Shown in pieces: positions 5,337-47,590 of a stretch of DNA of 64,000 nt. This DNA is from Nitrospirota bacterium. GTDB taxonomy: Bacteria; Nitrospirota; Nitrospiria; Nitrospirales; Nitrospiraceae. The notes beneath the pieces are model-generated. The model was not told where the DNA came from. It saw nothing but the letters and a program-made list of their open reading frames with translations, and searched no databases. The stretch's first letter is position 1. Every line of letters starts with the position of its first letter. The stretch is taken from contig CAVPBK010000006.1 in NCBI GenBank assembly GCA_963701855.1, forward strand, positions 544,001 through 608,000, given 5' to 3'. The translations under genes were made by a program, and so were the position numbers.

Positions 5337-5375
5337 AATCTTCCAAAGCACAGCGGCTTACGGCAGCGGGGGGAG

Positions 5376-11157: not shown

Positions 11158-11211
11158 CAGGACACCTCCCTTGATAAAATCCGCGTAGCGGACATCCGCC
11201 CCGCGCAACGG

Positions 11212-12447: not shown

Positions 12448-12452
12448 AGCCC

Positions 12453-14329: not shown

Positions 14330-14333
14330 ACCG

Positions 14334-15284: not shown

Positions 15285-15291
15285 GGCATCA

Positions 15292-16683: not shown

Positions 16684-16750
16684 CGGCGCGCGCCTTACTC
16701 CACCGGTTGGTGGATACGACTGTGATCCCTGTCCACGTTGCTCAATACCA

Positions 16751-19062: not shown

Positions 19063-19094
19063 GGCTCAGAACCACCCCTCCCTCTCCTTGCACG

Positions 19095-20504: not shown

Positions 20505-20508
20505 GCTG

Positions 20509-21585: not shown

Positions 21586-21658
21586 GCGGTCTTTACCTTA
21601 GCAATAACAATGACCCGTCCCGTTTGACCGACTCTTGAGTCGGATGGGCACCACCCCT

Positions 21659-23113: not shown

Positions 23114-23154
23114 TGACTCCTCACCTTGCATAGTCCCGGTCGTGGCCTGGATTC

Positions 23155-24672: not shown

Positions 24673-24679
24673 CGCCTAA

Positions 24680-26398
24680 TTAGTGATCCTTCATTGCCAG
24701 GGCGATTTTCACAGTGTCTTCTCTGGACACACCAAGATAGTTAAGCGCTTGCTCCCCGACCCGCCGAAAGACAGGCGCCGCCACAGTCCCGCCCCAAGCT
24801 TCGCCTTGAGGTTCATCGAGGACGACGATCATCGCCAACCGCGGAGATTCTGCCGGAACATACCCGACAAACGACCCGACAAACTGCGTAGAAGAATACA
24901 CGCCGGTTCGCGAATCGATTTTTTGCGCGGTCCCGGTTTTACCCGCCACGCGGAAACCCGGAATGGCCGCCTTGGTTCCCGTCCCATTCGTCACGACACC
25001 TTCCAGCATCGTCGTCATCGTCCGGGCCGTATCCGGTGACACGACTCGCCGCTTCACTTGTGGTCGTACTTCCTTAAGCAAGCGACCTTTCTGATCGCGC
25101 ACTTCGGATACCACGTAAGGTTTCATCATCACGCCCCCATTGGCGAGAGTCGCCACTGCCGACACCATCTGGAGCGCCGTTACCCCAATCTCCTGTCCCA
25201 TCGAAATCGACGCCGCTGATCGACGGCCCCAGTCTTTGGGCGCCTTCAAGAGCCCGCTCACTTCACCCGGCAGGTCGATATCAGTACGTTGGCCGAATCC
25301 GAACGCTTGGAGATAGTGGTAAAGCCGCTGTTCTCCAAGGGCCATCCCGGTTTTGGCAGCGGCGATGTTGCTGGACTTTTGAATCGCTTCAGAGAACGTC
25401 ATCCACCCCAGCTTGTCATGGTCATGAATCGTCGTATTCGCGATCACCATCTGGCCGTTTTCACCGAAGACCATGGAATCAGGCGTCATCACTTTTTCTT
25501 CGAGCGCCGCAGCCGCAACCATCGCTTTCATGGTCGACCCAGGCTCGTACGTATCGGTCAAGGCACGATTGCGCCACCGATCGGGCGTCAATGCGGCAAC
25601 GACATTCGGATCAAATCGTGGACTGACGGCCATCGCGAGAAGCGCACCAGATTGCGGCTCCATGACGATGATCGTTCCAGACTTGGCGCGGGAATGAGTG
25701 ACGGCCTCTTCGAGCTCTTTTTCCGCAATGTATTGAATGACCTCGTCGACGGTCAGTGTAAGGGCATGTCCCGGCGTCGGCGCTTGCTCCGACAAACCCT
25801 TGGGAAATACCGTGCGGCCTAACGCATCGCGCTGCAACACGGTGACGCGCTTCTCTCCATGCAAATGCGAATCGTATCGGCGTTCGAGACCTTCAAGCCC
25901 TTGCCCATCCATCCCGGAAAATCCGAGGACATGGGCCAGCAACGGACCCTTGGGATAAAACCGCCGCCCCTCCATCACCACGCCGATGCCGTCCAACGAT
26001 AACTGCTCCAACCTACGGCCTTGCTCAGGCTCGACCTTTCGCGCCAACCACACGAAGCTCTTGTCTTGCCGAAGCTTTCTCTCAAGCTCATCGATTCGAA
26101 TGTGAAGTACCGGAGAAAGATTCCGGGCGACGATCGAGGGGCTCTCCAGCGACGTCGGTACACCAAACACAGATGGTACCTCCACATTCATCGCAAGCAC
26201 TTTGCCGTGCCGATCCGATACCATGCCTCTGGCCCCCTCGAAAGATACGGTCTTTTGATGTTGCCGATCGGCCTTGGCCGTCAGTTCTGCTGCTTGAAGC
26301 ACTTGAAGCGTAACCAGCCGAAAGAGAATAATGCTGAACCCGCAAAGGAGCAGGAGCAACACGACATAGCGACGACCACGAGAAGGGCCGGCAATCAC
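24680..26398 (-). CDS. ftsI: Class B penicillin-binding protein FtsI
   Basis: EPGSTMK, SSN, KTGTAQ motifs. Confidence 0.95.
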   Translation of the reverse strand: MIAGPSRGRRYVVLLLLLCGFSIILFRLVTLQVLQAAELTAKADRQHQKTVSFEGARGMVSDRHGKVLAMNVEVPSVFGVPTSLESPSIVARNLSPVLHIRIDELERKLRQDKSFVWLARKVEPEQGRRLEQLSLDGIGVVMEGRRFYPKGPLLAHVLGFSGMDGQGLEGLERRYDSHLHGEKRVTVLQRDALGRTVFPKGLSEQAPTPGHALTLTVDEVIQYIAEKELEEAVTHSRAKSGTIIVMEPQSGALLAMAVSPRFDPNVVAALTPDRWRNRALTDTYEPGSTMKAMVAAAALEEKVMTPDSMVFGENGQMVIANTTIHDHDKLGWMTFSEAIQKSSNIAAAKTGMALGEQRLYHYLQAFGFGQRTDIDLPGEVSGLLKAPKDWGRRSAASISMGQEIGVTALQMVSAVATLANGGVMMKPYVVSEVRDQKGRLLKEVRPQVKRRVVSPDTARTMTTMLEGVVTNGTGTKAAIPGFRVAGKTGTAQKIDSRTGVYSSTQFVGSFVGYVPAESPRLAMIVVLDEPQGEAWGGTVAAPVFRRVGEQALNYLGVSREDTVKIALAMKDH

Positions 26399-26730
26399 TC
26401 TCTCTCCCTCCCGATAGATTCATGTTTCGCCACACGGACTTGATCCACTGGTGGGAGTGATAGGCTCGGAACCTCTCCTGGCATATGCACCATCAGCACT
26501 TGCCCCTGCTGCGGCGGAACCAGCCCCAACTTTTCTGTCGCCACCTTCGCGATTCGCGCTGGAGCCATCAGCGCGGAAAACTTCACTTGCAATTGATCCC
26601 GCTCTCGCTCCAGCAATATTTTCTGGGTCTTCAATCGTTCGATCTGATAACCCAATCGAACGACATCGACACGCTCCCACACAAACACAAAGACCAACAA
26701 CACACCCGCCACAATCGTTACCGCCTTCAT
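26395..26730 (-). CDS. ftsL: Cell division protein FtsL
   Basis: TM plus leucine zipper and PARIAKVATEKLGL; between rsmH and ftsI. Confidence 0.85.
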   Translation of the reverse strand: MKAVTIVAGVLLVFVFVWERVDVVRLGYQIERLKTQKILLERERDQLQVKFSALMAPARIAKVATEKLGLVPPQQGQVLMVHMPGEVPSLSLPPVDQVRVAKHESIGRERE

Positions 26731-27644
26731 GAATAACCCTCCCTGGATACCCGTTGGGCAGCCCGCAACTTGGCACTGCGGGATCGAGGATTCCTGTCCG
26801 ATTCTTCCTTAGTGGGGATCTGTGGCTTCTTAGTGAGTACCATCAAGGCAGGATCATCCTTGCTGGAGAGCGCGCGAAGCGTGTGTTTCACAATCCGATC
26901 TTCGAGCGAATGGAATGAAATCACACAGAGGCGACCACCGGGAGACAACACATCTGCCGCATCTCGCAATGCTGGATCAAGACAGTCAAGCTCGTGATTC
27001 ACTGCAATGCGAATGGCCTGAAACGTACGGGTGGCACAGTGAAGACGACCATGCCGGTAATGCGCCGGAACAGCCCCCTCGATCACTGAGACCAACTCAT
27101 TCGTCGTCGCCAGCAGATGGCGTTCTCGCGCACGGACAATGGCACGGGCAATTCGTCGAGAAAACCGTTCTTCGCCGAACTGAAAAATTGTATCGGCCAA
27201 CTGTGCTTCCGGCCAGCTATTGACCAGGTCAGCTGCGGTCCCGCTCATCGATTGATCCATACGCATGTCCAACGGACCATCCCCTTGAAAGCTAAATCCT
27301 CGAGCAGGCTCTTCCAACTGCGGGGACGAGATCCCAAGATCAAACAGAATTCCATCGACCTGGCCAATGCCACAGAAAGTAAGATGCCGTTTCAAATCCA
27401 CAAAATGACCATGGAGAAGGAACACGCGGTCGCCGAATCGTGCAAGCCTTTCTCGACTGGCGGCGATGGCCATCACATCGCGATCAATCCCAATAAGCCT
27501 GCTCTCAGGATCGCTCGTCTCAAGGATTTCCTCAGCATGCCCACTGTACCCCACCGTACAGTCAAGATAGGTTCGACCACTCTCTTGAACCAGCCAAAAT
27601 AGAGCCTCTTTTGACATGACTGGGATATGTCGAGAGGCCCCCAT
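26727..27644 (-). CDS. rsmH: 16S rRNA C1402 N4-methyltransferase
   Basis: HIPVM, DLGISSPQ, PLDMRMD, SFHSLEDR, NPRSRSAKLR. Confidence 0.97.
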   Translation of the reverse strand: MGASRHIPVMSKEALFWLVQESGRTYLDCTVGYSGHAEEILETSDPESRLIGIDRDVMAIAASRERLARFGDRVFLLHGHFVDLKRHLTFCGIGQVDGILFDLGISSPQLEEPARGFSFQGDGPLDMRMDQSMSGTAADLVNSWPEAQLADTIFQFGEERFSRRIARAIVRARERHLLATTNELVSVIEGAVPAHYRHGRLHCATRTFQAIRIAVNHELDCLDPALRDAADVLSPGGRLCVISFHSLEDRIVKHTLRALSSKDDPALMVLTKKPQIPTKEESDRNPRSRSAKLRAAQRVSREGYS

Positions 27645-34113: not shown

Positions 34114-35051
34114 ACACTGTAAAGCGGTACTTAATCGAATTCGCGCACCGAAATACATTCCTGCTATTCTCTGCGAGAAAGAGAGTGTGGTATTGAGTAG
34201 CAATGCCGAACCCTCCACCGCTTGCAACTTATATCTCCTTCAGAGCGTTCACAGGTGAGTCCTGCACACCTGATGAACTCAAAACATTCCTATCTAAATT
34301 CTTAAGAACTGAGGTTCTGTTCTTATGCGCTCTGTTGAATACAATTCTGGAAACATGGAGTGGCAAGATTCGGCGCGATGTGCATGACGATCTAATAGGC
34401 ATGGCTTTCTTGCCTGACGATGCAAACCGCCTCAAAGCCATAATATCAAAATCAACCGAGCCGGCATTCGTGTTTCACCGCCTGCAGATATTGTTCATCG
34501 CAAAGCAGGCTGTCATGAACTGTCATGACGACGGCAATGTTATTGATCCCTCGAACCATCTGCATTGGGGAGGTCTTGGCTTAGCTTTCTTAATGGCAAA
34601 CGATCTTCTTCATTTCGAATTTAATGACACGGAAAGAACTCTCCCACATTCACTGATAAGGATGGCTCACTCAATCCCAATGATGGAGTCCTCGGGAAAA
34701 ACCTCCTTGAACTACAAAGCGGGAAGGGCTTGGTTGATGCTAAAACAATTTAGCCCTTCTCCCCATAGCAAGGGTTATATCGATGTTGAGGGAGCTTTCA
34801 ACGCCGCAACTGGCCTATCCACTGAGGACTACCTATCACTTTGCGTCGGTATGGTGAGCCATTATCTTTCACTGGACTTCGAGCGCCTCAGGAAGAAAGA
34901 GGACAGCATTATGATAACCAAAGAATGGTTCACAAAAGCTGGGATCCGTCCCGTAACAGTGGATCACTTTTTTGAGGAGGTCTCCGCCTGACCCTCCCCT
35001 GATTTCATAGACACCTCCATAAGTGGGAGAATGATGAAATCGGAGGTCAGC

Positions 35052-35348
35052 ATGCCAAAAATAACGCGACGTCAGTTTACTGACGCATTCAAGTCCGAGG
35101 CAGTCCGGCTCACGCGGGAATCGGGCCGGCCGGTGGCCCAGGTGGCTCGGGAACTTGGGATTTCTGACAATGTGCTGTATCGCTGGAGGAGCGAACAGCA
35201 ACAGGTCGAATCCCAGGGCCGCACGCGCCAGGCGGTGCGGGTCGAGCAGGACGAGCTGACACGGCTCAAACGAGAAAACGAGACGCTGCGGAAGGAACGG
35301 GATTTTTTAAAACGTGCGGCGGCGTTCTTCGCGAGGGAATCCCAATGA
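35052..35348 (+). CDS. IS3 transposase OrfA (HTH + leucine zipper)
   Basis: RRQFTDAFKSEAV..VARELGI..LYRW; LKRAAAFF. GGAGG RBS before ATG 35052. Confidence 0.93.
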   Translation: MPKITRRQFTDAFKSEAVRLTRESGRPVAQVARELGISDNVLYRWRSEQQQVESQGRTRQAVRVEQDELTRLKRENETLRKERDFLKRAAAFFARESQ

Positions 35349-36208
35349 GATACCGCGCGATCCAGGAGCATGACCGTCGCTATCCGATCCGGTTGATGTG
35401 CCGCGCCCTCGCTGTATCGGCTGCGGGCTATTACGCGTGGCGCATACGGCCCGAGAGTACCCGTTCGGTGTCCGCCCGGACCGTGCTCTCGGCCATCCGG
35501 GTGATCCATCGAGAGTCCCGCGAGACCTACGGCAGTCCCAGCATCTGGGACGCCTTGATCAAGCAGGGACACCGCATCGGTGAACATCGCGTGGCCCGGT
35601 TGATGCGCCAGGACGGCATCCGTGCCAAGACCGTGAAGAAGTGGCGAGCCACGACGCAGTCCCATCATCGGTTCCCCGTGGCGGCGAACACCCTCAATCG
35701 CCAGTTCACGGTCGAGGCTCCAAATCGGGTATGGGCCGGGGACCTCACCTACGTGTGGACTACCGAGGGCTGGCTCTACCTCGCCGTCATCCTCGACCTC
35801 TACTCGCGCACCGTGATTGGCTGGGCCATGGGCACCAGGCTCATCGGAGATCTGGCCGAACGTGCCCTCATCATGGCGCTGGCGAACCGGATACCCGCGA
35901 CTGGGCTCCTGCACCATTCGGATCGCGGCAGTCAGTACGCCGCCACGAGCTACCAGCGTCTGCTCGGCGAGTATGGCATCATCACCAGCATGAGCCGCAC
36001 CGGCAACTGCTGGGACAACGCCTGTGTCGAGAGCTTCTTCGGGACACTCAAGCGCGAGCTCGTCTACCATCGGCATTACGCAACCCGTGAAGACGCGAAG
36101 CAAGACATCTTCGAGTACATTGAGGTGTTCTATAATCGGAAGCGCCGTCACTCGACCCTTGGCTATGTCTCCCCGGCCGAGTACGAAGCGAGGACGGCTG
36201 TGGCTTAA
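35345..36208 (+). CDS. IS3 transposase OrfB (DDE integrase core)
   Basis: WAGDLTY, HSDRGSQY, NCWDNACVESFF, YNRKRRHSTLG. Confidence 0.96.
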   Translation: MRYRAIQEHDRRYPIRLMCRALAVSAAGYYAWRIRPESTRSVSARTVLSAIRVIHRESRETYGSPSIWDALIKQGHRIGEHRVARLMRQDGIRAKTVKKWRATTQSHHRFPVAANTLNRQFTVEAPNRVWAGDLTYVWTTEGWLYLAVILDLYSRTVIGWAMGTRLIGDLAERALIMALANRIPATGLLHHSDRGSQYAATSYQRLLGEYGIITSMSRTGNCWDNACVESFFGTLKRELVYHRHYATREDAKQDIFEYIEVFYNRKRRHSTLGYVSPAEYEARTAVA

Positions 36209-37325
36209 CCCGGTGTCCACGGAATCGGGGGAAGGTCAGCCTTCCCCGATACGTTAGCCACTCGCTTCTCATCGAGAGACGGGGGTCCCTCCGACATGAC
36301 TTGGTTTCGCGACAAGCCTGTCTGCAGACTAAGGGAGGATGCAATATTTGCGTTGGACACGAAATGTCTTACGGAAAAACTAGATTCGGGGATTTTCTGG
36401 CGCGTGCACTCTCATTTGAAGAGTGGAAAGGACAAAGACAGCCTTCATAACTACTGGGGAATCGCATTTGAAAACTACCTCAACTGGCTCCTTGGACAGG
36501 CCTGCAGGGATAGCCGAAACAAATTCTATCCATCCCCTCATTACAAAAAGACGGGAGAGGAGGTCTGTGATGCTATCGTTGTTTGTGGCACGTCGGCCGT
36601 GTTTCTTGAATACAAAGGAAGCACATTTACTGCAACTTCAAAATACAAAGGAGATTTAAACGAACTTGCAGCAGAGATTGAAGAGAATTTGATTGGCACA
36701 GAATCGAAGCGGAAAGGTATTAGGCAATTAGCGAATGCCATCCTTGGCGTATTCGACAAGCAAACTCCTACCGTTGTCGCAGATGTTGACCTTTCAAAAG
36801 TCAGTACCATCTATCCCGTGCTCATTACACGGGACGAAATTGGCGGATGTTTTGGCATCTCGCCTTACCTAAACAAGAAAGCAGAAGCCTTCTTTTATCG
36901 GCGAAAGATCAAACCAAAAATTGTCACACCTATCTTTTGCCTTTCAAGCGAAGGGATCGAGACAATTTCAGCATATCTTCAGGATGACACTCTGTCTCAT
37001 CTTCTCCAAGGATGGTACAGGGAAGACCCAGGCCTCCATTGGTCGTTTCCCGCAGTAGAGGATTCTGTCATTGGCTCTCGTGGTTACAAGACGAACTCGG
37101 ATCTCGACACTGCATTTAACCAGGTGTTTGAGAATGCTATACGAGTCTTGTTCCCAAACTCGAAGCCTACCAGCCTCTCTTGAATTATGGAGGATAAAAG
37201 GTGCTGAGAACCATTCTTTTCATACTTGTAATCGCTCACCCCGTTTGATTCCCTTCTCGCTTAATTAAATAGTGGACAGCCAACCATGTAATAGCCGATT
37301 CTAATCGCCGGCGGGATATAAATGA

Positions 37326-37455
37326 CCCTTCTCAGGTCGCTCGCTACTCTCTCCCCAGGGGGTGGCCTCCGATTGTCCTCTACTGCGCGCGTCGGACGAG
37401 GCCCTTCCCAGGGCGCGCGTTCCGCGAGCAAAGAGGACATCGGAGGCCGCCCCCT
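37326..37455. repeat. Structured repeat family C
   Basis: Same core as 30843 and 61975 with different, pairing outer stems. Confidence 0.8.
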
Positions 37456-37516
37456 CTTCCCCCTTCTAATGGGGAATACCTTCCCCTCGTCCCGACTCCG
37501 TTAGACTCTCCCCTCC

Positions 37517-37879
37517 ATGGAACAGACCAGGCCCTACCAACGCAGCCTCTACCGCCTGACAGTCACCTGCCCAGTGATGTACTGTGTGACGTCGACGGTC
37601 GGCGAAGGAACGATTAAAAATCTTTCGGCCGTGGGATGCACGATCGAAACGGGCCAACCCCTGCTGACAGACCAGAACGTCGCATTGCGCCTGATGCTCC
37701 CCGATCATCACGAGTCGCTACCGATCGATGAAGCCTACGTGCGGTGGGTGCATGGTAATCTGGCTGGAATTGAATTTGTCGAAGTAGAACGTACCGCGAA
37801 TCTCCGGCTGCACGGTTTCGTATGGGATGGGATGGTCCAACACTTCCAGTCGATTCAACAGAAGCGCGCAACATCTTAG
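37517..37879 (+). CDS. Stand-alone PilZ domain protein
   Basis: RSLYR and NLSAVG motifs; VRWV...GIEF. Confidence 0.85.
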   Translation: MEQTRPYQRSLYRLTVTCPVMYCVTSTVGEGTIKNLSAVGCTIETGQPLLTDQNVALRLMLPDHHESLPIDEAYVRWVHGNLAGIEFVEVERTANLRLHGFVWDGMVQHFQSIQQKRATS

Positions 37880-37943
37880 CGGGCTACGGAAAAACCATTT
37901 TGGCATAACAGCGCTTGAATAGGGGCAAGGGGAGAGCTTCTCC

Positions 37944-38068
37944 GCAGGATGCTCAAAAAGTCCGTCTAGCAAGGCCGCAGCGCGTGAAGGCCCGATGCGT
38001 ACCCTTGCGGTACGTTGAGGGTCAGAACGATGCGAGAACGACTCTGGCGGACCCTTAAGGCATCCAGC
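37944..38068. repeat. Intergenic repeat family A
   Basis: Matches 30164-30288. Confidence 0.85.
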
Positions 38069-38075
38069 TAGGGAA

Positions 38076-39095
38076 TCAGGAGCCATTTCCTGTATTGTCG
38101 GTCCGGCCTTCCTGAATTGCCGCTGTCCGCCCGCCGTCGAGAGCCAGACAGAGTAAGCCTAGCCCGATCCAGACTAACTCGCGGAACCGCCGGAGCAGCG
38201 CGAAGGTGATGCCTGTGACGTCGGAATAACCAAAGGCGCTCAGCAAGAGCATGTTCCCGCCGTCTTGGGCGCCAAGGCTGCCGGGGATAAAGAAGGTGCC
38301 GCCTTTGATAAAGACAGAGAGCGCGCCGATGGAGATGGCGGAGAGGGCCATAGCAGGGCCACCCAGATAATAGATGATGACATACACTTCCAACGCTTCC
38401 GCCATCCACCCAAGAAAGAACAGCCCGGTGGAGGCATAAAAGGCCGGACGGTTGTCGCGATAGAAGGTTAAGATCGTTCGATCCAATGACCGTAACTTTT
38501 CCTCACGCGCTTCGAGATAGGCAATCTTCAACCCGACCTTCCGCAGAAATCCCAAGAGCCACGTAAAGAGTCCCTGCCGCTGCACGAACACGAATGCTGC
38601 AGTTCCGAAGGCCAGCAACCCCACACTCACAAGTGCCGCGGCCACGATGTGACCGGATGAATTGTTCCCGCCTAACAGCCACACACCCGATGCAATGCCG
38701 AGCAAAATAAAGAGCACCTCGGCAATCGTCATCGTTGTTTTCGCAATAATGACCGAGGCAAGCCCCTCGACCATCGGCACATGGTGTTTCTTGAGGAGAT
38801 AGGCCTTGAGCGGTTCGCCCCCGGCGTAGGCGGTCGGGGTCGTCATGTTCACCACTTCACCAGCAGTCCGAATTGCGAGCACACGCCAGAACGGAATACC
38901 CTTCGCCGACGGCCCCAACGTGACTTTCCACCCGTACGCTTCGACGACATACATGATGAGGGAGGGAATCAGCAGGACAAGGAGCGCGACCGGCCCAAGT
39001 TGCGCCGCTGCATCGTAAATTTGCCCGGGGCCAATATGCCAAACGATAAGAAGGAGGGTGAGGAGACCGACAACGAGTAGGAAAAGTTTTAGCAC
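38076..39095 (-). CDS. Lysylphosphatidylglycerol synthase TM / flippase-like membrane protein (HpnL/YbhN-like)
   Basis: NMTTPTAYAGGEPLKAYLL, IPGSLGAQDG, LLRRFRE; polytopic membrane protein. Confidence 0.8.
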   Translation of the reverse strand: MLKLFLLVVGLLTLLLIVWHIGPGQIYDAAAQLGPVALLVLLIPSLIMYVVEAYGWKVTLGPSAKGIPFWRVLAIRTAGEVVNMTTPTAYAGGEPLKAYLLKKHHVPMVEGLASVIIAKTTMTIAEVLFILLGIASGVWLLGGNNSSGHIVAAALVSVGLLAFGTAAFVFVQRQGLFTWLLGFLRKVGLKIAYLEAREEKLRSLDRTILTFYRDNRPAFYASTGLFFLGWMAEALEVYVIIYYLGGPAMALSAISIGALSVFIKGGTFFIPGSLGAQDGGNMLLLSAFGYSDVTGITFALLRRFRELVWIGLGLLCLALDGGRTAAIQEGRTDNTGNGS

Positions 39096-39221
39096 GCTAG
39101 GCTAGAAACCCACGGTGAGAACAAGCAGAGTAGGTTATAGGGGAACGTATCGTTATCTCCACTCCTTCAGCAAGAGAGCGCTTTAATGGCCTACACGTCT
39201 GGGACAAAAGGCGTATACGCT

Positions 39222-39405
39222 GCAGGATGCTCAAAAAAGGCCGTCCAGCAAGGCCGCAGCGAGCGAAGAGGCGAGGAGGTACCAACCACACTTTGTGTGG
39301 CCGTTCGCCCGTAGCATGGGTCTTGGCGAACGGAAAATACCCTCCAGTACTTCCGAGCCTCTGAGCGATGCGAGAACGACGCTGGCGGACTTTTTCAGCA
39401 TCCTG
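39222..39405. repeat. Intergenic repeat family A with inserted hairpins
   Basis: Same terminal IR and GCAAGGCCGCAG...TGCGAGAAC core; extra central hairpins. Confidence 0.85.
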
Positions 39406-40833
39406 TTAAGCACGGGTCCTGGCGGACGGTCTGATGACCCAGAGCATCAGGAGCGAGAACACCACAGATCCGGTCGCGGCCAGACCGAGAAACCAATCGA
39501 GCTTGCCGATCACAGCGAACACCAGCACGACGACGGAAAAATCCCGGCTCGCGACGTTCTTAAGCATGAAGTCCGACCAAGCAGCCTGCACCGGTGTCTT
39601 CCATCCATTCGAAGACTTGATCCTTTGCGCACGAGTGACGAGCCAAAATGAGAGCCCATTTCCAAGGACCGCTGCCGCACCCAGAGCAAGAGGAACCCAG
39701 GCATAATCGGTTCCAGCCATACGCAGGTAGGAGCCCGTGGCAATGCCGGCAAAGATCGCCATGTGCACCACGTTGTCCATTGTGATATCGAGCCAGGCCC
39801 CGAACGGCGATTCGGTAAACGTCAGCCTGGCCACTTCCCCGTCACAGCAATCGATGACCGCCGCCAGTTGGAACAACAACGCGGCCATGATGCCCGCGCT
39901 GTAGGTCCCGACGCCAAAACCGGCGGCCGCGGCCAACCCAACCAGGGTCGCCAGGATCGTGATGACATTTGGCGAGAAGCCTGCGGCGAGAAAGATACGC
40001 GTGAACCAGCGGGAGACCTTCCGATTGAAGTACCGGTCGACGAAACCCTCGAACTCGCTTTTGAGGGAATTGAACAGCTTCCTCTCAGCGGCCTTGACAT
40101 CGACAGCATCTCTCACGTCCTGATACCAGTGGGAGCGGTTCGTCTCCGTAGATATCACCCGCACATGCCCGTCCACCGCAGCCCGCTCGAGCCATGGACG
40201 AATCGGCAACGTACCGGTTTCCACATCGACTTGGCCGACAGTGCGCATAAAGCCGGATGGAACTACCACCAGATCTGTCGCTACCAACGCTGCGTCGTCC
40301 TGTTTCGATGTGATCGAGAGGAGTCGTCCTGCCTGCACCTTCATACGCACACTCGACCGTCGTGACTGTCGGTCTCGCTCGCTATCGGCTCGTGCCACGA
40401 CGATCGCCTGGCCCTCTTGCACCTCATGGCGCAGGCTCTCGATCAAGGGGCCAGCAAACACCCCCTGTACGCCGGACAGGAGACAGAAGCCGCGAATTTC
40501 AGAGGCCAGCGCCTCCCATGTGCGTGGATCATCCAACGGAAACTCACGAATCGGCAACCAGCGCACAGGAATTGTCACGCGTGAACCTTTGCTCAACGCC
40601 TGTTTGAGCTGATCTTCCTCTGGCCCGACCAACACCATAAGCTGTCGAATACCGGCGCGCTGCAGTGTCAACACCGTCCGCTGAAACAGGCCTATGCCCA
40701 CCACGCTGGTGAGCGGACCCACCTCCCCGGCGTACAATCCAGCCGGCTCACCGAACAGACTCACTGACGGCAAGAGAATCGCCGTGTTTAATCCCTGGAG
40801 GCCTGTCTGCTTCTGAACTGTGCTCTCGCTCAT
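39406..40833 (-). CDS. Fusion of a degenerate nucleotidyltransferase-like domain and a CDP-alcohol phosphotransferase
   Basis: C-terminal DCCDGEVAR...GAWLDITMD signature; N-terminus resembles an NTP-transferase but lacks GxGxR. Confidence 0.82.
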   Translation of the reverse strand: MSESTVQKQTGLQGLNTAILLPSVSLFGEPAGLYAGEVGPLTSVVGIGLFQRTVLTLQRAGIRQLMVLVGPEEDQLKQALSKGSRVTIPVRWLPIREFPLDDPRTWEALASEIRGFCLLSGVQGVFAGPLIESLRHEVQEGQAIVVARADSERDRQSRRSSVRMKVQAGRLLSITSKQDDAALVATDLVVVPSGFMRTVGQVDVETGTLPIRPWLERAAVDGHVRVISTETNRSHWYQDVRDAVDVKAAERKLFNSLKSEFEGFVDRYFNRKVSRWFTRIFLAAGFSPNVITILATLVGLAAAAGFGVGTYSAGIMAALLFQLAAVIDCCDGEVARLTFTESPFGAWLDITMDNVVHMAIFAGIATGSYLRMAGTDYAWVPLALGAAAVLGNGLSFWLVTRAQRIKSSNGWKTPVQAAWSDFMLKNVASRDFSVVVLVFAVIGKLDWFLGLAATGSVVFSLLMLWVIRPSARTRA

Positions 40834-40935
40834 GATCGGACGATCCTTCGTATTCGGGGGAAGGGCTATTCCAAATCACCCCGCCATCCTAACCGCCAGT
40901 ACCCCGTTTACCCCGATACTCCACTATCCCCGCTG

Positions 40936-41655
40936 TTAGAGTTTCGGCAACACATCCCGTTCCGCTTTCGTCACATCTTCCATAAAATCGATTTCGGTCC
41001 AGGGAAGTCCACCGATCTTTTCATGCCCGACTTTGACGTCACGGAAAAATCCCACAAGCGCATCTTCATATTCCATCTGCCAGGCCTCACGATCCACATG
41101 GGTCTTGAGCGACGCAATCACATGCGGCGCATCGGCATGCCGGACCTTGAGGAACCCCACGCCTTCTCCGGCATAATCATAGTGTAACGGCATCGTTTTC
41201 GTCAGTGCAATCACGCGCCCGCCTTCGACCACGACCATGCACTCTTCCCCTGTCTGCTTAACGGTGTCGTCCATGAGCAGCGCGTTCTCATAGGGAGATT
41301 GTACCAAACGGCGCAAGATCTCTTGATGAAAGAGCACGTCTGCATCCATGACGATTGCGTCGTCATCCAATGCCGTGCGCGCGATCCAGAGCGAGGAAAT
41401 GCTGCCGCGATGGAACTGCTCATTCACAAGGAAATTCACGCGCATGCCACAAGAATTCGCTGCCACAGCCGCGCGAATCATCTCCTGCTTGTAGCCCACC
41501 ACCATGTCGGCACAGTGAATACCGACGCTCCGAAGCGACGTGAGGTAGCGATGCAAGAGGGTCTGCCCGCCGATCTCGATCAGGCACTTAGGCCGATGCT
41601 GCGTGACCTGCCACAGGCGCTTCCCGACCCCGGCTGCGAGAATAACGGCTTTCAT
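40936..41655 (-). CDS. Phosphocholine/phosphonate cytidylyltransferase (LicC/PntC-like)
   Basis: ILAAGVGKRL..PKCL, MDADVLF, GEGVGF, EYED, WTEIDFMED. Confidence 0.85.
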   Translation of the reverse strand: MKAVILAAGVGKRLWQVTQHRPKCLIEIGGQTLLHRYLTSLRSVGIHCADMVVGYKQEMIRAAVAANSCGMRVNFLVNEQFHRGSISSLWIARTALDDDAIVMDADVLFHQEILRRLVQSPYENALLMDDTVKQTGEECMVVVEGGRVIALTKTMPLHYDYAGEGVGFLKVRHADAPHVIASLKTHVDREAWQMEYEDALVGFFRDVKVGHEKIGGLPWTEIDFMEDVTKAERDVLPKL

Positions 41656-42734
41656 ACTGTGCCGCAAATCCGTTCAAATGCGTCGAGGAATCCGACCAAC
41701 TGCGCCTCCGTGAGGGCTCCCATATTCGCGACACGGAAAATTTGGCTCTGGAGCTGGCCTTGACCCGCATAGATCACGTAGCCTTGATCCTTTAGCCGAT
41801 CGTGCAATGATTGATAGGTCACACCCTCGGGAAGGTAATAGGCGGTGATCGTGTTGGACAGTTTGTCGGGGGACAGGAGCGGCTTCATGCCGAGTTTCGC
41901 CATACGGTCTCTGATTAAGGTCGCAACTTTCTTGTACCGTTGAATCCGCTTGGCGACCCCTTCCTCCATGAGTTCGTTCAAGGCTTCGTCGAACGCGTAA
42001 TAGACCTGCACAGCCGGCGTAAACGGAATCGTCCCACGACCTTGGTCGTCCACATATTGGGTGATGTGAAGATAGATCGACCGTCTGGGGTAGGCACGCA
42101 TCCGCTCCAGAAATCCCTTGCGGACGAGCACGAAGGACACACCGGGGAATCCCTGGATACATTTTCCCGCTGTACCCGCCACCATGTAGATATGCGACCC
42201 GGCGATATCCAGCGGCTCCCCCGCCAAGGCACTGACCGCATCAAGAATAAACACGCGGTTCTGGCTGTCCACGACATCCGCGATTTCTTTGACCGGATTG
42301 ATGAGCCCGGTGGTTGTTTCATGATGGACCATGGCAACTGCATGGGCTTCCGGGTGTTGCCGCAGTGCGAGCCGCAACCGTTCAGGGTCCGGCTTTGTCG
42401 TCCAATCGTATTTAAGTTCGGACACGCCCAGGCGATAGAGGCCGGCCATCTGGGAAATGCGTTCGCCGTATACGCCGTTGTTCAGCACCAGCATCCGTTT
42501 GCCGGATGGGAGCGCCGACATCACGGCGGACTCGACTGCCGCAGTACCCGATCCAGTCAACACCACCGCGGCATAATCCGCTTCCGCCCCCGGCACAAAG
42601 AGCTTTAGCAGCTTCGCCTGAATCCCGAGCAAGAGCTCAGTAAATTCCGATTCCCGATGGCAAACATCCGGACGCAACAGTGCCTGCCGCACCCGCTCCG
42701 ATACGTTGACCGGTCCTGGATTCAATAGAACCAC
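41652..42734 (-). CDS. Class V aminotransferase, 2-aminoethylphosphonate transaminase-like (PhnW/AepZ)
   Basis: LLNPGPV, GSGTAAVE, VHHETTTGLINP, DAVS, KCIQGFPG, FTPAV, YVIYAGQG. Confidence 0.85.
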   Translation of the reverse strand: MVLLNPGPVNVSERVRQALLRPDVCHRESEFTELLLGIQAKLLKLFVPGAEADYAAVVLTGSGTAAVESAVMSALPSGKRMLVLNNGVYGERISQMAGLYRLGVSELKYDWTTKPDPERLRLALRQHPEAHAVAMVHHETTTGLINPVKEIADVVDSQNRVFILDAVSALAGEPLDIAGSHIYMVAGTAGKCIQGFPGVSFVLVRKGFLERMRAYPRRSIYLHITQYVDDQGRGTIPFTPAVQVYYAFDEALNELMEEGVAKRIQRYKKVATLIRDRMAKLGMKPLLSPDKLSNTITAYYLPEGVTYQSLHDRLKDQGYVIYAGQGQLQSQIFRVANMGALTEAQLVGFLDAFERICGTV

Positions 42735-42838
42735 AACACCCCCCGTTAATCGTTAACCGTACAATGTTAATCGCAGAAAGGGCCAACCTTCATTCTTTAG
42801 TCGAACTGCCATTCACAAATACCGTTGTTCGAGTCACG

Positions 42839-43417
42839 TCATTCGATCGCCTGCATGAACCGTTTCGTAATATCCGGTGGATCCAGCATCACGCGCCCGG
42901 CATCTTCCACCATCTCGTTGACTTTCACCAGCAACATGCTCGGCCCGTCTTTCTTCAGCATATCTTTGAATTCATAGACGAGATCTTCGCGTTCCCGCAC
43001 TCGTTCAACGTTCACATACCCGGCTGCCTTCGCGACCTTCTCAAGCGGGACCACATTGGATATCGTCGGCTGATTGCCGGTTGTGCCGTAGACTTCATTG
43101 TCGAACACCACATGAATAAAATTCTTCGGCCTCAGCGCCCCCACCGTCGCGAGCGTCCCCATGCCCATGAGGACGTTCCCGTCGCCGTCGAAGACGATCA
43201 CTTGTTTATTCGGCTTCGACAACGCCACGCCCAGTGCAATCGCCGCCGCCGATCCCATCGACCCGATCATATAGAAATGAGTCGGCCGGTCGGCAATCTT
43301 TTGCGCTTCACGAGATGGAAATCCATTACAAATGACGACGGGCTGGTCGGTGAGCAACTCTAACAGCGCGGCCATCGCCATGGCCCGGCTCTGCATGGTA
43401 CCTTCTTCGGGCCTCAT
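42839..43417 (-). CDS. Phosphonopyruvate/sulfopyruvate decarboxylase beta subunit (ThDP)
   Basis: FYMIGSMG, DGDGNVLM...DN, TTGNQPT. Confidence 0.85.
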   Translation of the reverse strand: MRPEEGTMQSRAMAMAALLELLTDQPVVICNGFPSREAQKIADRPTHFYMIGSMGSAAAIALGVALSKPNKQVIVFDGDGNVLMGMGTLATVGALRPKNFIHVVFDNEVYGTTGNQPTISNVVPLEKVAKAAGYVNVERVREREDLVYEFKDMLKKDGPSMLLVKVNEMVEDAGRVMLDPPDITKRFMQAIE

Positions 43418-43449
43418 CGATCCTGCTCCTTCATCGCCCCCTCACACCG

Positions 43450-43947
43450 CTAAGGATGTAACCCCTTCACGACGCCCTTTGTAATATTCAGTGCCACGGG
43501 AATCCGTTTCTTCATAAATGTCTCGGCCACCCACTTCAGATCGTCGATGGCCGTCTTTTCCGTCAACGTCCGATGAGGGATCTTCATTGTATCAAGAAAC
43601 TGCGGCATGACTTCGCCCATCACCAGATGCTCCGGCGCATCTTTGCCGCCTTGACCACGCCAGGACACGATCAGAATGCAAGGCTGCCGATAGATATAGT
43701 TGAGGGAGATGAGCGTATTCAGCGATGTCCCAAGCCCGGAGTTCTGCATCAAGACGGCGGGAATCTTGCCGGCCATATAAGCCCCGGCTGCCATGGCTAC
43801 GGCTTCGTCTTCGCGCACCGCTGGGGTGTAGAGACGCCGCTCCATCAACTCGGCAATGATGCCACCCAGGATCGAGTCTGGAACCCCCGTAAAGAAATCC
43901 ACCCCCATATCTTGAAGCGCTTGGACAAACGCATCGCTTTCAATCAT
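43450..43947 (-). CDS. Phosphonopyruvate/sulfopyruvate decarboxylase alpha subunit
   Basis: FFTGVPDS, REDEAVAMAAG, MQNSGLG, WRG...DAPEH..MG. Confidence 0.87.
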   Translation of the reverse strand: MIESDAFVQALQDMGVDFFTGVPDSILGGIIAELMERRLYTPAVREDEAVAMAAGAYMAGKIPAVLMQNSGLGTSLNTLISLNYIYRQPCILIVSWRGQGGKDAPEHLVMGEVMPQFLDTMKIPHRTLTEKTAIDDLKWVAETFMKKRIPVALNITKGVVKGLHP

Positions 43948-43988
43948 GTATCGAATCCTTGCCCCAACGCACATAGAAAAACCGGCGC

Positions 43989-44018
43989 ATTATAAGCTAT
44001 GCCTTCGGACATTCTCAA
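43989..44018 (-). promoter_or_regulatory. sigma70-type promoter for the decarboxylase operon
   Basis: TTGAGA-18-TATAAT on the minus strand. Confidence 0.55.
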
Positions 44019-44067
44019 CAAAACTGCGGGAGTTGCGCCATACGATTGGCCATGGTAGCGTTCTGCC

Positions 44068-44601
44068 ATGATCGGACTACAAAGACCTCATATAGGTCGA
44101 TACCTGAGCCTGCTGGGACTCCTGCTCTGTCTGAGCCGCCCCTTCCCTGTCCATGCGGTGCCAATGGTGAATGATCCGAACGGTTTTCAGAGCCTGGCCT
44201 GGGGTATTGCCCTGACCACGAGGCCGGATCTGGAAATCGCCAGAGCAGGCCCGCATATAAATGAATACCAACTGAAAGACAGCCCGCCATCGTATGCCGG
44301 AGTCCCGGTTGAGAGTCTCCATTTAGTATCTGTCGACGAGCAATTCGCCCGCGTGACCATCCACTATCAAGGTGAGGGTCGGCACAAACAAATCCTCGCC
44401 TACATGGAGCGACAGTTCGGTTCTCTTGAGCGCATCCCAGGACAGATGATGCGGGGCCTCAATCAGCAGTATACGTGGCGCGGGACTGATACTGAGATCA
44501 ACGTGACGTACCATGCGAACACGGAGAGGGGATTTATCTTCATCGACAGTCGAACCCTCGCCCCTCTGTTCAACGACCATATATCCGATTCGGCGGAGTA
44601 A
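44068..44601 (+). CDS. Secreted hypothetical protein (paralog of next gene)
   Basis: Signal peptide; NDPNGFQSLAWG, FARVTIHYQG. Confidence 0.78.
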   Translation: MIGLQRPHIGRYLSLLGLLLCLSRPFPVHAVPMVNDPNGFQSLAWGIALTTRPDLEIARAGPHINEYQLKDSPPSYAGVPVESLHLVSVDEQFARVTIHYQGEGRHKQILAYMERQFGSLERIPGQMMRGLNQQYTWRGTDTEINVTYHANTERGFIFIDSRTLAPLFNDHISDSAE

Positions 44602-44602
44602 C

Positions 44603-45142
44603 ATGCCGCGCTGGCCCCGCACAGACCATTGGATCCGCCATGTCTCCCTCATCATCCTTTTCTTCTCGCTCATCCTGCATGGCACCCCGGCTTTCGCCGT
44701 GCCGATACAGAACGATCCAAACGGGTTCGAAGGAATCCCCTGGGGCGCAACGTTTTCAGAAACCGATACGTTCGTGAAAGTCGAGGACACCGGTCGGTCT
44801 CAAATCTATGAATTAAGGACTGGGGCTCCTCTGCTTGGCACAGCACAGGTCGACTCCATGCAATTCGTAACTTCCGAAGGCAAGTTTGCACGTGTCACCA
44901 TCCGTTACCAAGGCAAGGCGACTCACGACAAGATTCTTGCCTATCTCCAATCCCTCTATGGCCCGCTCGACCACACACCAGGACAGATCGCCGGCGGTTC
45001 CGTCAAATTATTTAGCTGGACTGGGTTCGAAACCGATGTGACCCTCCGATATGAGACCGGCATCGATCGCGGCATCATTTTTTTCGAAAGCCAGGAGTTC
45101 CGCCGAAAAATGACCGACAGCAATTCAGCCACCGTGTTTTGA
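44603..45142 (+). CDS. Secreted hypothetical protein (paralog of previous gene)
   Basis: Signal peptide ending AFA; NDPNGFEGIPWG, FARVTIRYQG. Confidence 0.78.
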   Translation: MPRWPRTDHWIRHVSLIILFFSLILHGTPAFAVPIQNDPNGFEGIPWGATFSETDTFVKVEDTGRSQIYELRTGAPLLGTAQVDSMQFVTSEGKFARVTIRYQGKATHDKILAYLQSLYGPLDHTPGQIAGGSVKLFSWTGFETDVTLRYETGIDRGIIFFESQEFRRKMTDSNSATVF

Positions 45143-45177
45143 CTGACACCCCCTGCCTACCTATCTGAAGCATCTTA

Positions 45178-45441
45178 GCGGGATGCTCAAAAAGTTCAGA
45201 CTTCTCACCCGCCCAACCCTGGCGCGCCAAGACGCGCCGTTCCACAGGCAAAGCCGCAGACGATGAAAGCACCGGAGGCGTAGCCTCTTCTCACCCGCCC
45301 ACCCCAAGCTGCCAAGACAGCTTGTTCTCCGAGTGGGCTACGTTGAGGATGCTTTCGAGGTGAGAACGCTGCCTGGCGAAAGGCGCGTCTCGGCGCGCCA
45401 GGGTTGGGCGGGTGAGAACGGAGACTTTTTCAGCATCCTGC
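45178..45441. repeat. Intergenic repeat family A, long nested form
   Basis: Terminal IR plus internal IR CTCACCCGCCCAACCCTGGCGCGCC / GGCGCGCCAGGGTTGGGCGGGTGAG. Confidence 0.85.
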
Positions 45442-45602
45442 CTGGAAACCCTTGCCAATTGTGCCAGGACCCCCTACTCCCCCCTCTTCCGATGGGGCTT
45501 TTATCCCCTCTCATTGGGGATTGTTGAAATTTTTGAATACGGTATTCTCAAACTGTCGCCGGGGGATAGCAGAACCTCGGCGGAACCACTGAGGAGGCAC
45601 TG

Positions 45603-46019
45603 ATGAAGCTGGTCCACCCCATTCTCAAAGTCAACCACCAGAAAGCCCATTCGCTCTTGGATCGGCGCTATGCCGAACGGGTTCCGATTGGGTATCGAAT
45701 CAGCTACTCCGGGGAAGAAGGTGCACGGATCGTCAAAGGAGAGGGATTCCTGAAAGATCTCTCCAAAACTGGCTGCAAGATCCTGGGCGCGACCACGAGC
45801 TCGCTCGGTAGCAGGCTCACTCTGCTCCTAGACTTTGAAGATGGACAAGCCTCTTTGCGCCTTACCGACGTCATCGTCTCCTGGATTTCCAAAGACTCCT
45901 TTGCCGTCAGATTCCCCAAGTTGTCAGCAGAAGAACGAAGGCGGGTACAAGAAGTTATCTGGAAAAATGTCAGCCTGTCGTCCTTAGACGATCAACGGAC
46001 TGCGTTCCGCATCATCTAA
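45603..46019 (+). CDS. Stand-alone PilZ domain protein
   Basis: RYAER and DLSKTG. Confidence 0.85.
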   Translation: MKLVHPILKVNHQKAHSLLDRRYAERVPIGYRISYSGEEGARIVKGEGFLKDLSKTGCKILGATTSSLGSRLTLLLDFEDGQASLRLTDVIVSWISKDSFAVRFPKLSAEERRRVQEVIWKNVSLSSLDDQRTAFRII

Positions 46020-46047
46020 GCATCGATCCAACACCACGGAGAAAATC

Positions 46048-46446
46048 ATGGGTCCTCACACCCCTGCACCCGTCACCAGCGTCGCTGAATTCCCGGGCCA
46101 ATCCGATCGCCGGCATAACAACCGAACCCCGGCGCTCTTCTCTTTGCTCTATTCCGGTATAAACACTGGCCAAATGCTGATAGGTGATGGCACCGCCTCT
46201 AACCTCTCACGAAGCGGGATCGGCATTCGCGGGAACCGATCAGTCACACCCGGCATGGAAATGGCCCTCTTTATTGACCTTCCTGGACTGGGAGAGCCAC
46301 TGTGCATTGCCCAGGGCCGCGTCTCCTGGGTTGAGGGACGTCGATTTGGAATGGAGCTGGGACCCATGAAGCTGGAGGGGGAGAAGCATCTGCAATTCTT
46401 CTTGTGGGATCGCGTCACCCCTTCAGATCGAGATAGTGACATCTGA
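46048..46446 (+). CDS. Stand-alone PilZ domain protein
   Basis: RHNNR and NLSRSG. Confidence 0.85.
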   Translation: MGPHTPAPVTSVAEFPGQSDRRHNNRTPALFSLLYSGINTGQMLIGDGTASNLSRSGIGIRGNRSVTPGMEMALFIDLPGLGEPLCIAQGRVSWVEGRRFGMELGPMKLEGEKHLQFFLWDRVTPSDRDSDI

Positions 46447-46475
46447 GACCGTAACAGGAGCACGGAGGTGTCCTC

Positions 46476-46862
46476 ATGAAACGAGAACAGATCACATCTA
46501 GAAACGGGCTTCAGTCTGTGACAGGAGCGATCAATCGGAGGCAAGACCCTCGCCCCTCGGTAGAGTTCGGATTGATGTACTCAGCTCAAGACCATTCCGG
46601 TGAGATCCTCATGGGCGATGGCATGGTGACAGATCTCTCGCCCACGGGATTAGGCATTCGCGGCAATGCCCCTGTCACACCGGAGATGGAACTCACGATT
46701 TTTCTCTACCTCCCCGATGGAAAAGACCCGCTCTTTGTGATGGAAGCGAGGGTGGCCTGGACTGCAGGACATCGGTTCGGAGTCGAGATCCTGAAGATGA
46801 ACTTACGGGAACGAAACCGACTCAGTTCTTTCTTACGCTCGAATCTCGTGCATTCCGATTAG
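46476..46862 (+). CDS. Stand-alone PilZ domain protein
   Basis: RQDPR and DLSPTG. Confidence 0.85.
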   Translation: MKREQITSRNGLQSVTGAINRRQDPRPSVEFGLMYSAQDHSGEILMGDGMVTDLSPTGLGIRGNAPVTPEMELTIFLYLPDGKDPLFVMEARVAWTAGHRFGVEILKMNLRERNRLSSFLRSNLVHSD

Positions 46863-46889
46863 ATCGATTGCCTGCTCACGGAGAACTCG

Positions 46890-47348
46890 ATGACCACACG
46901 ACGAAAGACGCACAAACGAGCGACGACCCATCGCCAAATTCAGGCCACTGACCGCAGAGCGGCTCAGCGGGTCCCTGTTCAAATCATGGTTCGATTTTCA
47001 GCAACAGACAGCTTCCAGCATGTTGGCCAGGGGGTTGCTCTTGACCTGTCTGAGAGCGGGTGTAAACTCTGCAGCACACTGATGTTGCCACTGGGAAGCT
47101 TCTGGGATCTCTACCTGACAATCCCCGAGACATCCCATCCGATCCTCATCTCGAAGGTTCGGGTAGTCCGGGTCGAGGGAAACGAATACGGAATCGAATT
47201 TCTTCTCGTCACGGAACGAGAGCGAACCCGGTTACGCCATTTCATCTGGAAACATATGAACCACTCCACAGTCAGAGGTGGACCTCCATTATTTACCCTC
47301 GTCGACCATTCATCCATACATCGGCCACGTCTCAAATCCCTGCTCTAG
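46890..47348 (+). CDS. Stand-alone PilZ domain protein
   Basis: RAAQR and DLSESG. Confidence 0.85.
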   Translation: MTTRRKTHKRATTHRQIQATDRRAAQRVPVQIMVRFSATDSFQHVGQGVALDLSESGCKLCSTLMLPLGSFWDLYLTIPETSHPILISKVRVVRVEGNEYGIEFLLVTERERTRLRHFIWKHMNHSTVRGGPPLFTLVDHSSIHRPRLKSLL

Positions 47349-47590
47349 TCCGCATGATTCATGAAGCTTCTGCTGCACGCGCGGATACGCGGCTATGACA
47401 GGCCATCTCGCCGTTTAGCCCTTTGACATACTGTTGGGGACTGGCACTCTTCTTCTCGGTGCCTATCCCCGTCTGAAGAGCGGGGCAGGCACTGCCGCAG
47501 ACGGCAGAGCCAGTCCCTGGCCTCCGTGTGCCGGTATCACTTCACGTCTGCACGCTTTCGCGACGAAGGTTCATGAATCATGCGGGCTAG
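47345..47590. mobile_element. MITE-like element bounded by CTAG
   Basis: CTAGTCCGCATGATTCATGAAGCTTC ... GAAGGTTCATGAATCATGCGGGCTAG terminal IR; no ORF inside. Confidence 0.65.

Follow-up and report, generated by a model that had tools for sequence, protein, structure and literature searches.

The 64,000-nucleotide stretch of a Nitrospiraceae contig analyzed here (the window) contains a six-gene operon whose products probably catalyze the later reactions of a pathway to a 2-aminoethylphosphonate (AEP) head group, a pathway whose first enzyme is encoded elsewhere in the genome. The operon is a real feature of this Nitrospira-family nitrifier. As the first-pass annotation of the window had described, six co-oriented open reading frames (ORFs) are present, and their Pfam and NCBIfam matches agree with the families that it had listed: the two subunits of a thiamine diphosphate-dependent decarboxylase (ppdA and ppdB), a predicted AEP:pyruvate aminotransferase (aepT), a PntC-like cytidylyltransferase, a fusion of a nucleotidyltransferase (NTase)-fold domain and a CDP-alcohol phosphotransferase, and a flippase-like membrane protein (Table 1). 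By its gene content, the predicted pathway is complete but divided between two loci, and the apparent lack of phosphoenolpyruvate (PEP) mutase (PepM, or Ppm) is explained by a predicted canonical gene that is unlinked to the operon. The product is most likely a carbon-phosphorus (C-P) membrane head group, aminoethylphosphonate.

The window indeed has no pepM, as had been claimed. The contig's only other PF13714 match (20.6 bits) lies outside the window, and a tblastn search with the linked mutase of relatives found nothing in the window besides the NTase. Of the two explanations that had been offered, an unlinked pepM or a different head group, the former is borne out. The suggested genome search for a PepM with the motif EDKx5NS returned a single TIGR02320 match genome-wide, which scores 390.1 to 392.5 bits, above the equivalog cutoff of 319.55, and carries EDKLFPKTNS at residue 116. 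The EDKx5NS motif is described as setting Ppm apart from the rest of the isocitrate lyase superfamily (PMC6697681). The protein matches the solved mussel PEP mutase 1m1b with 428 bits and consists of PF13714 followed by NTP_transf_3 (PF12804) at residues 303 to 423, the architecture of a canonical PepM-NTase fusion. Its gene lies on contig C3, away from the operon on contig C6, and the two do not share a gene neighborhood. The equilibrium of the mutase reaction is established to lie far towards PEP, and a coupling enzyme is needed (PMC8942020). Since the mutase needs such an enzyme and the genome's sole Ppd-like decarboxylase is the window pair, with the remaining matches scoring just 25 and 21 bits, the pepM locus and the window operon appear to complement each other. 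The neighbors of this canonical form of pepM (class A) vary between genomes, which suggests that its functional partner is not local. In this genome only, the unlinked pepM is followed directly downstream by a gene for a 614-amino-acid (aa) NodU/CmcH-type carbamoyltransferase (L004:6836-8680, contig C3). This gene was considered as a part of the system and rejected, being found beside class A pepM in 0 of 14 other loci (11 plus three longer ones).

The operon is conserved among relatives. Of the loci found when one genome per species was scanned, 80 related ones were kept, nearly all of them from Nitrospirales. All six genes are present in 66 loci, 65 of which have the same order as the window, and this indicates that the gene arrangement is not due to chance. 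In the rearranged locus (L124:870-13936), the phosphonate genes are interleaved with shc and the genes for HpnA and a CruF-like membrane protein. A further twelve loci, from Nitrospirales or Nitrospinota, are short or break off within the cluster, and one of them (L113) has no NTase match; L125 and L126 carry just a distant homolog of the fusion protein. A tblastn search of the fusion protein against plasmids gave no match. A linked PepM-like gene adjoins the operon in 15 of the 80 loci.

The operon and PepM also co-occur in the family Nitrospiraceae. A total of 121 genomes, including that of the window, were sampled, and genes with a best E value below 1e-50 were counted as PepM type; matches of about 140 to 155 bits are other isocitrate-lyase-family paralogs and were excluded from this count. 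The counts include three unpublished genomes, two with both genes (G006 and G076) and one with the mutase only (G053). The fusion gene was found in 103 genomes and a PepM-type gene in 100, with both present in 98 and neither in 16. Five genomes have the fusion gene and no PepM-type gene (G016, 92% complete; G047, 81%; G078, 80%; G099, 75%; and G068, 72%), and two have a PepM-type gene without the fusion gene (G053, 76% complete, and G057, 84%). When the unpublished genomes are left out, the numbers with both, the operon only, the mutase only, and neither are 96, 5, 1, and 16, respectively. In the order-level sample, PepM-type genes are present in 85 of 91 genomes; by score, 56 genomes have a match above the cutoff, 29 only below it, and 6 none.

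PepM-type genes of the family have two forms. Class A scores 383 to 396 bits, above the cutoff, and was in no case located near the operon; 35 genomes have it, among them all 11 in the genus of the window. Class B scores 184 to 293 bits, below the TIGR02320 cutoff, and is located 1 to 3 kb from ppdA on the opposite strand, separated from it by one to three copies of a gene for a small secreted-looking protein. Class B is a mutase-NTase fusion as well, with approximately 34% identity to class A, and the motif IEDN[VI][YF]PKRCS replaces EDKx5NS in 3 of 3 aligned proteins, in 15 of 15 linked copies among the 80 loci, and in 120 of 120 database homologs. Its closest solved relative is PEP mutase 5unc, with 290 bits, and phosphonopyruvate hydrolase comes next, with 250 bits; its scores on the NCBIfam models for PEP mutase (274 to 288 bits), phosphonopyruvate hydrolase (262 to 274 bits), and methylisocitrate lyase (approximately 207 bits) are all below the cutoffs. 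Examples of class B are L037:6414-8126, L039:5684-7363, L040:11610-13286, and those in 15 of the loci L047 to L126; the NCBI name for class B, also in N. moscoviensis, is "isocitrate lyase/phosphoenolpyruvate mutase family protein." Class A alone is present in 34 genomes and class B alone in 65 (62 without the unpublished genomes), and both are present only in G044, an assembly of 700 contigs with 3% contamination. The genera g2, g10, and g37 each contain both forms. Because the two forms are near-exclusive yet both are found within single genera, either of them probably serves the same operon. The simplest reading is one of repeated replacement, in which a free-standing canonical PepM-NTase gene took the place of the linked divergent one and the operon may be fed by either form. 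By tblastn, no class B remnant was found in the genome of the window.

The decarboxylase and aminotransferase would fit the steps that follow the mutase. On the Ppd model TIGR03297, PpdA scores 129.4 bits and PpdB scores 175.5 bits, and among solved proteins PpdB is closest to 9iz3_B, which bears the name "Putative phosphonopyruvate decarboxylase beta subunit" (E value, 6.9e-27). Split Ppd domains are mentioned as occasionally seen in PMC8942020. AepT matches TIGR03301 with 349.3 bits, its best family by 79 bits, and its top solved relatives are the AEP-pyruvate transaminases 9kk8 (E value, 2.7e-60) and 1m32. No PhnJ was found in the genome, and the best PhnX match scores 33.8 bits against a family cutoff of 220; a catabolic role of AepT is therefore unlikely.

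The remaining three genes are predicted to function in activation, transfer, and flipping. By PF12804, the genome appears to have two PntC-type NTases, one stand-alone and one fused to PepM. The stand-alone NTase retains the canonical AAGVGKRL...PK signature, with GxGxR at residue 13. Among solved structures, the nucleotidyltransferase/class-V aminotransferase fusion 6pd1 is its closest relative (E value, 4.1e-14; residues 6 to 241; 56 bits), and we take 6pd1 to be the AEP-specific cytidylyltransferase PntC of the Pnt pathway. In the fusion protein, an NTase-fold domain (approximately residues 1 to 250) is followed by a CDP-alcohol phosphotransferase membrane domain (approximately residues 260 to 470), which scores 43.5 bits on PF01066 and has an intact D-x2-DG-x2-AR-x8-G-x3-D-x3-D motif, DCCDGEVARLTFTESPFGAWLDITMD, at residue 328. 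An AlphaFold2 model based on 19 homologs had a pLDDT of 83.7, and its best fold match is IPCT-DIPPS (4mnd; E value, 1.1e-18; TM scores, 0.70/0.80), with the N-terminal half matching nucleotidyltransferases such as RmlA, MurU, and IPCT. The loss of the GxGxR...PK signature from residues 1 to 60 suggests that the N-terminal domain is a noncatalytic remnant and that CMP-AEP is supplied in trans; the distant homologs P0207, P0214, P0237, and P0240 retain the signature. Since AEP has no hydroxyl group, its chemistry indicates that it could enter the transfer only as the activated donor, with an alcohol as the acceptor. The genome encodes no PF03706 protein other than the flippase-like one (109.6 bits), which scores 79.2 bits on TIGR00374, above the cutoff. 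Its nearest NCBIfam model is HpnL (TIGR03476), on which it scores 152.4 bits, below the cutoff of 195.65. MprF-family members translocate amine-modified lipids.

We infer the catalytic activities, the acceptor, and the flipping step of the pathway from the gene content, motifs, fold, unlinked pepM, and co-occurrence described above. PEP would be converted to phosphonopyruvate by the unlinked canonical PEP mutase-NTP-transferase fusion, and PpdAB would decarboxylate phosphonopyruvate irreversibly to phosphonoacetaldehyde, pulling the unfavorable mutase reaction. The aminotransferase would then convert phosphonoacetaldehyde to AEP, and the PntC-like cytidylyltransferase, possibly together with the mutase-fused domain, would produce CMP-AEP from AEP and CTP. 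A membrane alcohol, in the simplest case diacylglycerol (DAG), may receive the phosphonyl group of CMP-AEP through the action of the CDP-alcohol phosphotransferase domain, and the MprF-TM/HpnL-like protein may carry the amine-bearing lipid to the outer leaflet.

Several observations weigh against this pathway. The scores of the two subunits on TIGR03297 (129.4 plus 175.5 bits) remain under the whole-protein cutoff of 312.5, the score of AepT is below the TIGR03301 cutoff of 360.8, and PpdB scores slightly more on ComE than on Ppd. The five operon-bearing genomes without a detected PepM-type gene are 72 to 92% complete, and the sampled kin are not independent, so that the co-occurrence in 98 genomes overstates the number of events and is a pattern rather than a statistic. 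In addition, the nearest solved enzymes to the fusion protein, AF2299 and IPCT-DIPPS, use soluble or undefined acceptors, and a literature search found no bacterial CMP-AEP:alcohol transferase of the CDP-alcohol family beyond the prediction in a Nostoc genome paper.

The PpdB score of 187.4 bits on TIGR03846 (ComE, the beta subunit of sulfopyruvate decarboxylase), the unlinked pepM, and the five operon-bearing genomes that showed no PepM-type gene would also suit the other explanation in the first-pass annotation, that a different head group is made from sulfopyruvate or another 2-oxo acid, here taken to involve a ComDE-like decarboxylase and no PEP mutase. However, PpdB is under the ComE cutoff of 221.5 and PpdA is under the ComD cutoff (109.5 bits on TIGR03845; cutoff, 147.95), the genome, which is 97.1% complete, has no ComA (PF02679) match, and the solved protein nearest to PpdB is a putative Ppd beta subunit. 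PepM-type genes are found in 98 of the 103 operon-bearing genomes and beside the operon in 15 of 80 loci, and it is established chemistry that a taurine-like sulfonate has no phosphate or phosphonate group to attack CTP, which would leave the cytidylyltransferase without a substrate. The sulfopyruvate route is thus not supported and is extremely improbable. It is also very unlikely that the unlinked PepM-NTase serves another phosphonate pathway and that the operon is an unfed relic that lost its linked mutase. The PepM-like gene that adjoins the operon in relatives is not there in this genome, and a dispersed repeat has inserted between two operon genes, both of which would suit a relic, but all six ORFs are intact and 84 to 99% identical across the genus in unchanged order, and the genus has retained the operon together with the canonical pepM in 11 of 11 genomes. 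Nor does the genome have a second Ppd to pull the mutase reaction, and class A pepM has no conserved biosynthetic neighbors.

CMP-AEP may be made as described above and then transferred to something other than a glycerolipid, for example a bacteriohopanepolyol hydroxyl, a glycan linked to a polyprenol, or, as in the synthesis of di-myo-inositol-phosphate, a soluble polyol; we consider this unlikely. This reading draws on the closest folds, IPCT-DIPPS and AF2299, which do not use DAG, and on the last gene, whose HpnL-like product is the sole such protein in a genome with a squalene-hopene cyclase (791 bits). A possible hopanoid acceptor had been raised in the first-pass annotation and is weakly supported: the cluster of L124, from an unclassified bacterium, has shc (811 bits) and hpnA (466 bits, over the cutoff) embedded among its genes, whereas the window protein is under the HpnL cutoff, shc is located at C6:467992-469911, approximately 114 kb from the operon, and shc is linked to the cluster in just 1 of 80 loci. 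HpnL genes are reported to be enriched near shc, and the HpnL function is described as unknown (PMC12324291). A flippase-family partner would suit any lipid, DAG lipids included. That Nitrospirales attach AEP to a nonglycerolipid alcohol, e.g., a bacteriohopanepolyol side chain, with the HpnL-like protein handling the conjugate, is quite improbable in our view. To our knowledge, no phosphono-hopanoid has been described; if this proposal were true, phosphono-hopanoids would be a never-described class, HpnL-type proteins would gain a first function, and the C-P bond in two-thirds of the sampled Nitrospiraceae would come from an EDNx5CS mutase that standard phosphonate surveys discard.

The coordinates of the operon and of associated features are listed in Table 1. 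The first-pass annotation had recognized ATGA coupling between aepT and the NTase gene, and this holds: the ATG of NTase Met5 (41655-41653) overlaps the aepT stop codon (41654-41652). The alignments of relatives begin at this residue, and the ATG at 41655 is likely to be the NTase start. The true start of ppdA is probably Met10 (43947), with AAGGA 8 nucleotides (nt) upstream and relatives aligning from residues 4 to 10. An own promoter had also been proposed for the operon. A TTGAGA-18-TATAAT site is present, matching at 11 of 12 positions, but the region has no excess of such sites over shuffled sequences (3 sites compared with 3.6 expected), which makes the candidate weak when taken alone. 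An Rfam scan of positions 37000 to 47500 at an E value of ≤0.1 gave no match.

Table 1. Positions of the operon genes, associated features, and the unlinked mutase gene (window coordinates unless a contig is given)
Feature	Position	Strand	Family or remark
ppdA, thiamine diphosphate-dependent decarboxylase alpha (N-terminal TPP domain)	43450..43974	-	PF02776 TPP_enzyme_N
ppdB, decarboxylase beta (C-terminal TPP domain)	42839..43417	-	PF02775 TPP_enzyme_C
aepT, predicted 2-aminoethylphosphonate:pyruvate aminotransferase, AepZ/PhnW type, class-V	41652..42734	-	TIGR03301
PntC-like cytidylyltransferase, 243 aa	40936..41667	-	NTP_transf_3, PF12804/PF00483
NTase-fold + CDP-alcohol phosphotransferase fusion, 475 aa	39406..40833	-	PF01066 CDP-OH_P_transf at residues 288-438
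Flippase-like membrane protein, 339 aa	38076..39095	-	PF03706 LPG_synthase_TM (MprF transmembrane/HpnL-like)
Sigma-70-like promoter candidate TTGAGA-18-TATAAT	43989..44018	-	11/12 matches; in a 93-nt divergent intergenic region
Secreted-looking protein, Nitrospirota specific, conserved operon neighbor	44068..44601	+	Divergent from the operon
Paralog of the 44068..44601 gene	44513..45142	+	Probable start Met31 = 44603
Dispersed-repeat copy with inverted ends, between the fusion and flippase-like genes	39215..39410		blastn
Unlinked pepM (class A), 544-aa ORF	G000:C3:191841-193475		TIGR02320 match at C3:192627-193439

The fusion and flippase-like genes overlap in other genera (e.g., L037) and are 310 nt apart in the window, a gap that results from the insertion of the dispersed repeat. 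This repeat is approximately 190 nt long and gave 266 blastn high-scoring segment pairs (HSPs) in the genome; it is also present at about 37944-37989, and by eye a similar copy is located just upstream of the unlinked pepM. The occurrence of one element both upstream of pepM and inside the operon was considered as a shared regulatory element and rejected as evidence of coregulation, because it is the dispersed repeat with 266 HSPs genome-wide. Upstream of the operon, the divergent gene at 44068..44601 encodes a protein with no Pfam family, whose nearest Atlas clusters are Nitrospirota hypothetical proteins, and which is found beside ppdA in Nitrospiraceae loci. After its paralog, relatives carry the linked PepM-like gene and the window carries four PilZ genes. 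In total, genes for five PilZ proteins, all small and with a single domain, lie to either side of the operon (37517-37879 and 45603-47348), the four in tandem being at the position of the relatives' mutase.

The wider window contains other recognizable genes. An IS3-type transposase pair, with an HTH_Tnp_1 orfA overlapping an rve orfB, is located at 35031-36208 and is flanked by two ORFs without a family (34203-34991 and 36296-37183), which may be the halves of one interrupted gene. A second, stand-alone CDP-alcohol phosphatidyltransferase of ordinary type (4800-5351; 183 aa; PF01066, 114 bits) adjoins type IV pilus/T2SS-F and PilS/PilR-like genes. A complete dcw cluster (9961-27644) comprises mraW, mur ligase genes, mraY, an 815-aa ORF with MurG domains, murB, ddl, and ftsQ-ftsA-ftsZ.

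Soils, fresh water, sediments, and treatment plants all harbor abundant Nitrospira-type nitrifiers. If the membranes of these organisms bear AEP, they would be a widespread and unrecognized source of C-P compounds, and such lipids would be expected to resist enzymes that cleave phosphate esters. Phosphonate mining based on gene neighborhoods misses pathways that are divided over two loci, and phosphonate producers may be undercounted as a result. Filtering on EDKx5NS or on the TIGR02320 cutoff would likewise drop the linked mutase-like enzyme of most sampled Nitrospiraceae and lead to an undercount. That the two mutase forms almost exclude each other makes a clean and testable case for the divergent form being a functional PEP mutase.

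The implied membrane lipid had been called uncharacterized in the first-pass annotation, which is fair, but the proposal is not new, since this set of genes matches the predicted Group 1/Burkholderiales_CDP-OH cluster, the product of which was never characterized according to these accounts (Li & Horsman 2022, PMC8942020, and PMC5987646). The route predicted for that cluster joins a CMP-phosphonate to a lipid alcohol to yield a phosphonolipid. The Burkholderiales_CDP-OH group is equated in PMC8942020 with the phosphonolipids of Group 1 in Yu et al. 2013; a core of seven genes is given there, namely, Ppm, Ppd, AEP transaminase (AEPT), 2-oxoglutarate [2OG-Fe(II)] oxygenase, two PntCs, one of which is Ppm fused, and two phospholipid biosynthesis genes, and the same account says that none of the group's phosphonolipids is characterized. 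A matching gene set with a CDP-alcohol phosphatidyltransferase and "hpnL" is reported in Nostoc, with a proposed reaction of CMP-phosphonate and DAG (PMC5987646). About a third of Ppm enzymes are stated to be fused to PF12804, and some clusters to have both a fused and a separate NTase (PMC6697681). In a literature search for Nitrospira together with phosphonolipids or AEP lipids, the sole find was a remark in a metagenome paper that pepM occurs in Nitrospirota (PMC10734540).

The system of the window resembles the Burkholderiales_CDP-OH (Group 1) cluster in having a Ppm-fused NTase, a putative Ppd, a putative AEPT, a second NTase, a CDP-alcohol transferase, and an HpnL-type protein, a likeness drawn from published gene-cluster descriptions rather than from sequence comparison with Burkholderia or Nostoc proteins. 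In contrast to that cluster, ppm lies on a different contig, the putative Ppd consists of two separate proteins, the transferase bears a degenerate N-terminal NTase domain, and the lineage is Nitrospirales. A search for a 2OG-Fe(II) oxygenase domain that covered the operon proteins and the scanned ORFs of the window, but not the remainder of the genome, gave no match; AEP rather than 1-hydroxy-AEP is therefore expected. The Pnt pathway (Ppm-Ppd-AEPT-PntC; Rice et al. 2019, PMC6697681) similarly leads to AEP and then to CTP-dependent CMP-AEP, but its characterized examples are described as feeding glycans via LicD-type transferases, whereas the window has a CDP-alcohol phosphotransferase and a flippase-like partner. 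The Archaeoglobus fulgidus proteins IPCT-DIPPS (4mnd) and AF2299 (4o6m) share with the fusion protein a cytosolic NTase fold followed by a six-helix CDP-alcohol phosphotransferase domain, with sequence E values of 2e-19 and 2e-13, respectively, and the structure alignment with 4mnd covers 462 columns. Compared with IPCT-DIPPS, the fusion protein has 19% identity, scores 99.6 bits on NF041135 (cutoff, 580), has lost the N-domain signature, and occurs in a phosphonate rather than an inositol phosphate context. The product of the last gene belongs to PF03706, as do the MprF transmembrane domain and HpnL, but it has no synthase domain, is below the HpnL cutoff, and is not encoded near shc. As read from its genes, the system of the window is a Nitrospirales variant of a predicted, chemically uncharacterized phosphonolipid pathway, in which ppm is unlinked, Ppd is split, no oxygenase is present, and the transferase is fused to an apparently dead NTase domain.

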